A DNA stretch of 64,000 bases from a virus, in IMG/VR virus record IMGVR_UViG_3300032401_000001, positions 64,001-128,000 of that record; one strand, written 5' to 3'. Both the position numbers and the translations under genes were made by a program. The notes under the pieces were generated by a model. It saw nothing but the letters and a program-made list of their open reading frames with translations, ran no database searches and was not told where the DNA came from. Positions 1,669-24,649 of this stretch are shown here, piece by piece (position 1 is the first letter of the stretch; each line of letters opens with the position of its first letter).

Positions 1669-2088
1669 ATGCGCTGCGCCGAGTGTCCGCTGAGCCTGGC
1701 GTGCTGGAGTGGCCACCTCGGCGTCACTCGAGCCCGCCCAGAACTGTGTCCGCGTTGTAAACGCTTCGTCGTAGCAGTAGTCCCCGATGCCGGAGAGATT
1801 GATGAAGGCGTTGGTGGGTTGTGGTACGCCCTGAAGTGCGAACAGCGTCCGTTCGACCGGGCTATGAATCGGCGCTGGCAGCAGCTGATGAAGAAGCAAC
1901 GCGAAGAGATGGCACGAACCCGTCAACAAGCGCACATAATTCCTCGAACGACGGAGGACCCCGTCAACCGGTTGCCCATGGGCTTGGTCCTCGGTGAATG
2001 CGTCATCTGCAGCGGCTGGGTGGCGCGCTGGAACGGCAAGTATATCGACCTCGACGAAGTCGCCCAGGCGGCCTTGGAGGACGCATGA
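1669..2088 (+). CDS. 8-Cys paralogue family member 1
   Basis: MRCAECPLSLACWSG...CPRC...C...CVIC. Confidence 0.8.
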   Translation: MRCAECPLSLACWSGHLGVTRARPELCPRCKRFVVAVVPDAGEIDEGVGGLWYALKCEQRPFDRAMNRRWQQLMKKQREEMARTRQQAHIIPRTTEDPVNRLPMGLVLGECVICSGWVARWNGKYIDLDEVAQAALEDA

Positions 2089-2273
2089 AGAAGGACATCT
2101 CGGTGAAAGGTGAGACATACCAACGCCTGCAACGTGAAGCCAAGCAGCGGGGGGTCAGCGTCACCGCGCTCGTGGCGGACATCGTGCATCGCTTCTTCCA
2201 CGGCGGCGCGGCCCCGAAGGTATCGAAGAAGGCACCGGCGTCCTCGCCGCCGGCGATGCCGACGACGTTCTGA
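2085..2273 (+). CDS. ribbon-helix-helix DNA-binding protein
   Basis: MKKDISVKGETYQRLQREAKQRGVSVTALVADIV: beta-alpha-alpha RHH pattern. Confidence 0.7.
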   Translation: MKKDISVKGETYQRLQREAKQRGVSVTALVADIVHRFFHGGAAPKVSKKAPASSPPAMPTTF

Positions 2274-2578
2274 TGATCGCGCTCCGCACCGCGGCTGACT
2301 GCCAGTACTGCCCCTACTCGCTGATCTGCCTCGGTGAAGCGTGGACGCCATCGATGCGCCGTGAAGCGCGACTGCGCCAGTGCATGAGCTGCCACGCCAT
2401 GTTCTTCAACGTCGGCCACCGGACGTACATCTGCGGAGTTTTTCGGCAGCGCAACACTGAGGTGCAGCACGTGTACATCACTACGCAGCGGTGTCATGGT
2501 CGTCGTAGTGACGGTCGGATATACGCCGAGAACTGCTTCGAGCTCTATCAGAACCACCTAGAGAAACCCCACTCCTAG
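2273..2578 (+). CDS. 8-Cys paralogue family member 2
   Basis: DCQYCPYSLICLG...CMSC; C-terminal cysteines diverged. Confidence 0.75.
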   Translation: MIALRTAADCQYCPYSLICLGEAWTPSMRREARLRQCMSCHAMFFNVGHRTYICGVFRQRNTEVQHVYITTQRCHGRRSDGRIYAENCFELYQNHLEKPHS

Positions 2579-2593
2579 AGAAGGAAACCCCCG

Positions 2594-2896
2594 ATGATCG
2601 CATTCAACATTGACCTCGGCAAACTGCGTGGCTTCTCGCACGACCCGTTGGCCTTCATGACGGGCTTCGTGCACGGCTACCGAGAAGGCACGGAGAAGCC
2701 GGGCAACACGGTCGATCAGACCCTCGACAAGGACGAACCCCCGGTAACGCTCGACAGCCAAGGACAGATCTTGGCCAAGGAGTACCTCCGCGGCCGCCGA
2801 CTGGGTGTCGCGGTCCTGGAGAAGCGGCGCCCGATGCCGAAGTGGGCGCACCCCAGCAACGGCACCGGTGGAAAGGGCAAGACCCGATGCCTGTGA
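2594..2896 (+). CDS. hypothetical protein
   Basis: RBS aagga, coding-like composition. Confidence 0.7.
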   Translation: MIAFNIDLGKLRGFSHDPLAFMTGFVHGYREGTEKPGNTVDQTLDKDEPPVTLDSQGQILAKEYLRGRRLGVAVLEKRRPMPKWAHPSNGTGGKGKTRCL

Positions 2897-23566: not shown

Positions 23567-23619
23567 CTGGACTCCTTGGACAACGAATCTGAGGACGTTG
23601 AGAATCGCGGTCACCAACA

Positions 23620-24310
23620 TTAAAAGCGATTGGACACCGAAAGTAAAGTAGAATCAACGTCACAGGAGTAAAAAACGACGTTCGGGGGCGCTCAACGGTG
23701 GCGAGACTACATATAGAAGGACCTATAAACGAGAAATCGAAGACATAGCGGAGTAGGAGATAGAGGTAAATGTACGCAGTGTAGGTATCGTCCACTTTCA
23801 CCAACCGCGCCGCCCGAACACCGTACAGCAAAGGGATAGTAAGAGGTTGTATTGATAAGTGAATATAAGGAATCATAGCATCTGACCGATGGAACACAGT
23901 GAAGCAAAGGGTCGCGTGTGTGTGAGGTCTCCCCACCGCGCAGCTCAGCTATACAATAACTTCTAAGAGATAAGTATAAGAAATGAGATGAATATAGAAG
24001 AAGCAGTGCAATTAGGATTGAAGACTTCGTAGGAGACACCATACAGTAATAACGAAGAGAACGCTGATTCTCTGCAAACGTAGGTAAATTGCCTCAGTGT
24101 GAGTTAGTGTCGTTGTTCAGTGATTCTAGGCAGCTAAGCTCATCGCAGCGGAGCTCACCGCGGCAGGTCAGGGGCCAGTCAGTCTCCACTGTTCGCACAC
24201 CTGGGGGCCGGTGCAGGTGAGGGGGCGCGCGGCGGGTCTTGCCTACCTGTAGTTTTATGTCGTAGAGTTGTAGTGCATCGCTACGTAACGTCACGTGTTG
24301 TCGTGGTACA
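23620..24310. other. AT-rich, strand-skewed non-coding tract (origin candidate)
   Basis: Visibly much more AT-rich than the rest of the window, purine-rich + strand, ATATAGAAG at 23711 and 23992. Confidence 0.5.
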
Positions 24311-24319
24311 AGGCTGTCG

Positions 24320-24649
24320 ATGCCCTGCGAGACCTGCTGCTTCAGCCTGCGCTGCTTGGCAGGTGAGGTTCCTTTCGACGAGCGCCTCGATTGCTCCTCG
24401 TGTGACCGTAGCATCTTCGCAGTCTACGAGTCGTGCCACCCGGCGCGCTACTACGTGGCGCACTGCTCACCGAGCATGTACCAGCGCGAGCCGTTGACGG
24501 AAGGTGTGACCCAGTGCCCATTCTGCCGGCCGTGGGACTGGTCGATCGGTCGCGTCTTCGAAGACGTCAGCACTGGTGAGCGGGTTTCGGTTGAACAGCT
24601 GCGAGAACGTCAACCGCTGCCCGCCTACACCTATCGTTTCTTTCGCTGA
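24320..24649 (+). CDS. 8-Cys paralogue family member 23
   Basis: MPCETCCFSLRCLAG...CSSC...C...CPFC. Confidence 0.75.
   Translation: MPCETCCFSLRCLAGEVPFDERLDCSSCDRSIFAVYESCHPARYYVAHCSPSMYQREPLTEGVTQCPFCRPWDWSIGRVFEDVSTGERVSVEQLRERQPLPAYTYRFFR

Follow-up and report, generated by a model that had tools for sequence, protein, structure and literature searches.

The 64,000-nt stretch of phage DNA analysed here (the window; bases 64001–128000 of IMG/VR virus record IMGVR_UViG_3300032401_000001) carries, between positions 1669 and 24649, 23 small genes encoding one family of proteins with a characteristic set of eight cysteines. The family is real, undescribed and unnamed, and has so far been found only in phage and metagenome DNA. 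To judge from its substitution pattern it is a set of old, specialised paralogues under purifying selection and not a diversifying repertoire, and its distribution indicates that it is an old hallmark of a deep, uncultivated phage clade. The source genome is a single virus record of 197,792 bp with a guanine-plus-cytosine (GC) content of 63%, rated 100% complete, in which the 23 members comprise 2,557 residues, or ~4% of the 198-kb genome.

An earlier reading of the same DNA from its letters alone (the original prediction) had listed 23 small open reading frames (ORFs), and all of them are present at the proposed starts on the + strand, encoding 76–151 amino acids (aa), based on the ORF listing, a six-frame motif scan and an alignment. 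One layout is common to the members, in which an N-terminal [MV]-x-C-x2-C-P-x-[SA]-L-x-C-[LF] is followed by a CxxC, a hydrophobic strand with a lone Cys behind it, and another CxxC. The six-frame scan returned 22 regular-expression matches to the N-terminal motif between positions 1675 and 24326, on the + strand only, and missed the 23rd copy (11195) because Glu replaces Pro. At the nucleotide level, the pattern TGY-N6-TGY-CC-N7-YT-N4-TGY occurs 20 times in the window, always on one strand, against an expectation of 0.04 ± 0.20 from 100 dinucleotide-preserving shuffles. Cys3, Cys6, Cys12 and Cys30 (member 1 numbering) are invariant in the alignment of the 23 proteins, four more cysteines are at least 90% conserved, and every member (23/23) keeps the C-x2-C-x5-C spacing. 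Third positions of the motif codons vary freely and first and second positions are fixed, indicating that the constraint acts on the protein. Members 2, 5, 6, 7 and 11 had been correctly singled out as deviants, to which members 9 and 23, both without the Pro, have to be added. A hidden Markov model search of the whole 197,792-bp genome identified no additional members outside the window. One candidate for a 24th copy, in the C-terminal part of an 866-aa protein without a Pfam family (genome position 187613), was rejected, as the alignment is limited to the 11-residue motif (hhalign probability 14%).

In agreement with the earlier statement that this is not a named family, none of the 23 members has a match in Pfam, PHROGs or NCBIfam beyond sub-threshold noise, nor in the PDB, where the full-family profile likewise gave no significant match by sequence. 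A tblastn search of 50,697 GenBank phages produced noise only. Profile searching of 1.84 billion representative proteins yielded 148 clusters at E ≤ 0.001, nearly all of them proteins of 80–190 aa that begin with the motif at residue 1. These metagenomic homologues are counted as 50%-identity clusters (about 150), and those with source information are all unnamed metagenome proteins, mostly from short contigs. No fused or longer forms of the family were found; a 2,247-aa hit (P0005) was discarded as spurious, being a translated tandem repeat. Across 185,579 bacterial and archaeal genomes, two scans with a DNA pattern returned 0 and 64 matches, and the downstream Cys pattern followed in none of the 64, which are thus chance matches to the searched motif.

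Elsewhere the DNA pattern was recovered in 23 stretches, which come from one sister phage in IMG/VR and 21 contigs of JGI metagenomes, again in tandem arrays. The sister phage G001 (130 kb) has 17 family copies arranged in this way, and the family-bearing phage contigs range from 36 to 64% GC. Two contigs from one sequencing study with 36–38% GC, L038 (2–3112 and 3109–4973) and L040, encode four to six consecutive members each. In L038 the array comes immediately after the gene of a helicase with 41% identity to the XPD-like helicase of the studied phage, so array position is conserved in a very distant relative. It is the recurrence of tandem arrays in the sister phage, the JGI contigs and the low-GC contigs that marks the family as an old feature of the clade.

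The 3+2+1+2 arrangement of cysteines is kept in 206 of 224 unique members (92%), across spacers of 6–21, 12–80 and 0–62 residues and tails of 2–98 residues. In the deviant subfamilies that were read, cysteines have changed place and their number stays at eight or above; one subfamily has lost the lone Cys and has a Cys downstream of the last knuckle instead, and another has two separated cysteines in place of the last CxxC, again giving eight. No full-length subfamily was found in which four cysteines were lost together. Because the count is maintained in this manner, with cysteines moved and not lost, it is plausible that the eight cysteines make up two four-ligand metal sites. The most economical split would combine C4xxC5 and C7xxC8 (numbered in order along the protein) into a site of zinc-ribbon/rubredoxin type. 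Consistent with this, both the middle and the last knuckle show the Pro and Gly of a CPxCG signature, as in zinc-ribbon and rubredoxin knuckles, the first of these two CxxC pairs sits in a predicted β-hairpin, and Cys-to-His swaps among 150 sequences occur only at C8, with none at C1, C2, C3 or the lone Cys. The likeness to zinc ribbons does not extend to whole-protein models, which match no zinc-ribbon structure (see below), and profile matches to RNA polymerase A′ and eS27 were not significant (E 0.16–0.23). By elimination, C1, C2, C3 and the lone Cys would form the other site, binding Zn or an iron–sulfur (Fe–S) cluster. As far as cysteine bookkeeping goes, the two sites envisaged in the original prediction, one of zinc-ribbon type and one built from C-x2-C-x5-C and the lone Cys, appear to fit the family. 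A lipoprotein signal peptide was also considered for the N-terminus and rejected; the stretch ahead of the third Cys has only 11 residues, includes charged ones, and mostly ends in L, V, I or P.

For the N-terminal site, zinc would be the metal at a little better than an even chance, and an Fe–S cluster somewhat below one. With a [4Fe-4S] or [2Fe-2S] cluster at this site, the proteins could carry electrons or act as switches that respond to redox state, O2 or NO in the manner of FNR and WhiB, a role that we consider quite unlikely. The first three cysteines of the site are spaced exactly as are Cys20, Cys23 and Cys29 of FNR, which bind the cluster together with the distant Cys122 (PMC4672761), and as in FNR the fourth Cys is far off in the sequence and the motif lies near the N-terminus; the resemblance nevertheless spans ~11 residues, and the present proteins, at only 76–151 aa, have no Pfam domain for a cyclic-nucleotide-binding β-roll or a C-terminal helix-turn-helix (HTH). 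The lack of His at the four positions of this site favours a cluster, as does the presence of other putative Fe–S or Zn proteins (with a CxxCxxCC domain and DUF5131) embedded in the array. A Pro following the second Cys and a hydrophobic residue following the third point in the same direction, both being features of the WhiB and MutY motifs. However, a Cys4 zinc site explains the same pattern, no Pfam Fe–S family was matched, and a profile of the N-terminal 22 residues retrieved no Fe–S protein from the PDB, its matches there being weak and confined to signal-peptide-like strings (E 0.3–4.4). In PMC13013590, WhiB-like proteins are described as confined to Actinobacteria and the phages of these bacteria. 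None of the 23 members matches the WhiB family (PF02467) even at E ≤ 1, and the WhiB arrangement, with its first ligand 14–22 residues upstream, is impossible here, as the motif mostly begins at residue 3 or a few residues later and leaves no room for an upstream Cys. Sites of the endonuclease III/MutY and AddB/Cas4 types were rejected because no member has an HhH-GPD glycosylase or RecB-type nuclease Pfam domain.

Two members were modelled with AlphaFold2, member 10 (12300–12596; 98 aa, acidic with an isoelectric point (pI) of 4.3; predicted local distance difference test (pLDDT) 79.7, predicted template modelling score (pTM) 0.71) and member 17 (16793–17065; 90 aa; pLDDT 76.0, pTM 0.65). The two models have the same order of elements, in line with the common fold that had been expected for the family. 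In this predicted order, α/β overall, an N-terminal CxxC knuckle with a short helix (residues 9–13) is followed by a β-hairpin formed by strand 1, CxxC and strand 2, and then by strand 3, at the end of which lies the lone Cys. Next come the other CxxC knuckle and a helix, and a last strand closes the chain at the C-terminus. The member 10 model found no match in the PDB (Foldseek), BFVD or the ESM Atlas, by shape or by features, with template modelling (TM) scores below 0.4, and VIA-align comparison of both models with 48,161 chains gave best Z values of 2.7–2.8. We read this as no match found and not as proof of a new fold.

Within the genome the closest paralogues share 24–38% identity, and for each of the 17 members checked, other phage contigs contain full-length relatives that are closer than these (36–96% identity). 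Twelve of the 23 members have clear orthologues in G001. The ratio of nonsynonymous to synonymous substitution rates (ω) was measured individually for 11 of these orthologue pairs and lies between 0.05 and 0.42, compared with 0.07–0.43 for 18 neighbouring genes, and pooling of the 12 pairs gives ω values of 0.19 for scaffold codons and 0.24 for loop codons. No template/variable repeat pair or other diversifying device was found in the window or the genome, and a diversity-generating retroelement (DGR)-type mechanism was rejected on these two grounds. Since loop ω is close to scaffold ω and such repeats are absent, the loops differ between paralogues but are fixed. The earlier statement that everything between the cysteines differs accordingly holds between paralogues and not between orthologues of related phages. 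These data bear directly on the proposal of an antibody-like repertoire, in which actively diversifying loops would engage in an arms race with the host. Loops that are very different in sequence and length between paralogues, and the unequal gene content of the sister phages, are what such a repertoire would produce. Purifying selection as in the neighbouring genes, loops that are hardly freer than the scaffold, the missing device, and paralogues that, in the 17 cases checked, are closer to members in other phages than to those of their own genome all argue against it. We therefore abandon this part of the original prediction, and consider active diversification very improbable.

Gene content changes instead by gain, loss and replacement of whole cassettes, with breakpoints in a conserved 5′ coding module of ~40 nt. 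Copy number is 23 in the studied phage and 17 in G001. Four consecutive members are absent from G001, namely members 12 (12926–13273, 115 aa), 13 (13270–13656, 128 aa), 14 (13653–13904, 83 aa, with a TTG start) and 15 (14205–14549, 114 aa), as is the His-rich member 19 (17322–17681, 119 aa). Members 5, 10, 22 and 23 are replaced in place by other family members, and members 6 and 21 are without a close counterpart. Three junctions were aligned base by base, and in each the similarity breaks inside the 5′ module, within the first ~10–40 nt of the gene. At the first, one phage runs on into member 12 and the other into member 16 (14546–14836; 96 aa, basic with pI 10.3), the crossover lying at the start codon and first Cys codons of member 12; the member 16 orthologue (90% identical, ω 0.42) directly follows that of member 11 in G001. 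Member 5 (7062–7292) is the shortest at 76 aa, has a terminal CC for CxxC, and its start overlaps the stop of member 4; the G001 gene at this position is only 41% identical, and DNA similarity stops at 7102, inside the 5′ module. In G001 a different member occupies the position of member 10, and the left breakpoint falls ~20 nt inside the gene. For member 23 (24320–24649; 109 aa, with the variant motif CCFSLRC), which stands alone beyond an AT-rich divergent gap, the upstream DNA is 97.8% identical to G001 up to 24363, after which the gene body is swapped (34% protein identity). The same-position counterpart of member 22 (19071–19352, 93 aa) is only 40% identical. Member 21 (18619–19074) is the longest at 151 aa and has no close G001 orthologue. 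Member 6 (7279–7722) is 147 aa as an ORF and lacks the lone Cys between the knuckles, with additional cysteines after the last CxxC; its 3′ part overlaps another ORF, leaving its true end uncertain.

The 23 genes are co-oriented and often overlap, as in translational coupling. In many members the codons of a C-terminal strand motif, …[IV]-E-x-L-[ED]*, carry the Shine-Dalgarno sequence and overlap the next start, an arrangement also seen in the low-GC relatives. The junction at 12907–12966 (+) is an example, in which C-terminal strand codons (…EDLxDL*) with a GAGGA Shine-Dalgarno sequence overlap both the GTG/ATG start and the ~40-nt 5′ coding module of the following member (repeat families D1, D2 and D7). 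Among large DNA viruses of eukaryotes, the poxvirus ‘accordions’ and the multigene families (MGF) of African swine fever virus (ASFV) are tandem gene families whose size rises and falls through unequal recombination. The present array resembles them in its tandem, diverged paralogues, with copy number differing among close relatives via recombination between repeated genes. The viruses and proteins are unrelated, however, and the recombination substrate here is the conserved 5′ coding module.

With regard to function, we think it probable, without great assurance, that these are small cytoplasmic metalloproteins in which each paralogue is a binder with its own fixed partner. Two tetrahedral metal sites would staple a minimal core, from which three variable regions would project, namely the segment between strands 2 and 3, that from the lone Cys to the last knuckle, and the C-terminal tail. 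Each paralogue would most likely recognise a particular host or phage protein or nucleic acid, and the paralogues together could serve as a permanent kit of dedicated binders with which the phage takes over its host, counters defences or exerts regulation, as opposed to a diversifying library. The pI of the members extends from 4.3 to 10.3, with about half of them neutral or acidic, and no surface residue is conserved other than one Arg after the first CxxC. Such wide variation in charge without a conserved surface fits different partners better than uniform DNA binding.

The main rival, which we regard as unlikely, is that the members are sequence-specific nucleic-acid binders, either transcription factors for the programme of a phage RNA polymerase or structural DNA binders. 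A jumbo-phage precedent exists in Bacillus phage G, where a lineage-specific zinc-ribbon expansion of ~35 copies has been proposed to act as transcription factors or structural DNA binders (Iyer et al. 2021, PMC7824862). Both are large phages with dozens of small Cys-knuckle paralogues to which no role has been assigned. The family studied here differs in having eight cysteines in two sites and an N-terminal C-x2-C-x5-C, and in being spread over a deep uncultivated clade; the phage G family was rejected as a homologue, as a profile of 150 members finds nothing in NC_023719 at E ≤ 1. Nucleic-acid binding would also suit the zinc-ribbon-type knuckles, the strongly basic character of several members (pI 9–10.3), the multisubunit RNA polymerase piece encoded by the phage, which needs its own regulators, and the ribbon-helix-helix (RHH)-like and HTH-like small ORFs in the same region. 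It is less easily reconciled with the many neutral or acidic members and with the near absence of conserved surface residues, the single Arg being the only basic one, and 23 regulators would be many for a genome of 198 kb. Certain points weigh against the specific-binder reading as well. The neighbouring genes are also orphans, so that context provides no function, the grouping of cysteines into sites rests on motif logic, and purifying selection with wide charge variation fits specific regulators equally well. A more far-reaching proposal, which we also rate as quite unlikely, combines a new fold, in which an FNR-like Fe–S cluster and a zinc ribbon would staple a mini-scaffold, with a modular set of host-targeting effectors employed throughout a deep clade of large uncultivated phages, the 5′ module serving both as metal motif and as recombination handle for swapping cassettes between phages.

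The remaining members, all on the + strand, have orthologues in G001 and span a range of divergence. Member 1 (1669–2088, 139 aa) has the canonical eight cysteines and an orthologue 97% identical (ω 0.05). Member 2 (2273–2578, 101 aa), with its motif from residue 10 and two separated cysteines replacing the last CxxC for a total of still eight, follows at 94% (ω 0.08), ahead of member 7 (10474–10764, 96 aa; CxC for the first CxxC) at 92% (ω 0.17), member 3 (3752–4093, 113 aa) at 90% (ω 0.13), member 17 at 87% (ω 0.20) and member 11 (12586–12936, 116 aa; Cx3C) at 86% (ω 0.13). More divergent are the orthologues of member 20 (18311–18622, 103 aa; 77%, ω 0.33), member 4 (6640–7065, 141 aa; 74%, ω 0.22), member 18 (17055–17315, 86 aa; 72%, ω 0.35) and member 9 (11195–11491, 98 aa; 65%, ω 0.28), the last with CELSLMC, in which Glu stands for Pro. 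An orthologue is also present for member 8 (10761–11198), a 145-aa protein with a basic tail (pI 10.0).

The array, on the + strand, follows the replication genes and continues as far as a GC-skew switch and the one stretch of the genome that is strongly AT-rich. The skew changes sign near window position 20000. The AT-rich stretch (23611–24056), a candidate for a replication origin or a hub of early promoters, holds 4 of the 7 genome-wide 40-nt windows with ≤37.5% GC and is located within a 700-nt divergent gap flanked by member 23 and the minus-strand gene of a 934-aa protein. A scan for sigma-70 promoters and terminators gave counts at or below chance. The 934-aa protein (20816–23620, −) is an orphan without a Pfam family and is 99% identical to its sister-phage counterpart, with a synonymous divergence (dS) of 0.033, far above its surroundings in conservation.

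Most non-family genes near the array are orphans, the exceptions being a CxxCxxCC-domain protein, a DUF5131 protein, a collagen-repeat protein and the RHH-like regulator; the HTH-like small ORF is also located in the array region. The CxxCxxCC-domain protein (5039–5389, +; 116 aa, putatively zinc- or iron-chelating) lies amid family members and has a sister-phage orthologue 86% identical. A 282-aa protein with collagen triple-helix repeats (8539–9387, +; Pfam E 1e-17) and a hydrophobic N-terminus is likewise encoded inside the array region. Between members 16 and 17, a 1.9-kb insert (14836–16793) that is absent from the sister phage contains the DUF5131 (Gp37/Gp68-like) gene and three small ORFs. 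Further along the window, a 245-aa protein (40577–41311, +) is a full-length member of DUF7873 (Pfam E 3e-91).

The genome as a whole encodes a primase, a family A DNA polymerase, a class II ribonucleotide reductase, the XPD-like helicase and a multisubunit RNA polymerase β′ piece. The last of these lies outside the window (genome 172745–174559, −) and is ~30% identical to proteins of Salmonella phage Arash and Vibrio phages D181, D148 and D69. The nearest GenBank phages share just ~25–30% protein identity in the RNA polymerase piece and helicase. Both ends of the record bear a 140-nt direct repeat (genome 1–140 and 197653–197792, 99.3% identical), which suggests a terminal repeat or a circular assembly, though the record is classed as linear.

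A large share of the unexplained gene content of big phages consists of expanded families of tiny proteins. The family described here is conserved over a clade ranging from 36 to 64% GC, has no known relative in sequence or fold, and at 80–150 aa has a size suited to direct biochemistry. The breakpoints in its 5′ module provide a clear example of a phage gene array gaining, losing and exchanging members. If the N-terminal site holds an Fe–S cluster, the family would represent a new class of phage Fe–S proteins, and if its members bind host proteins, they would offer a ready-made collection of natural inhibitors on a minimal metal scaffold.

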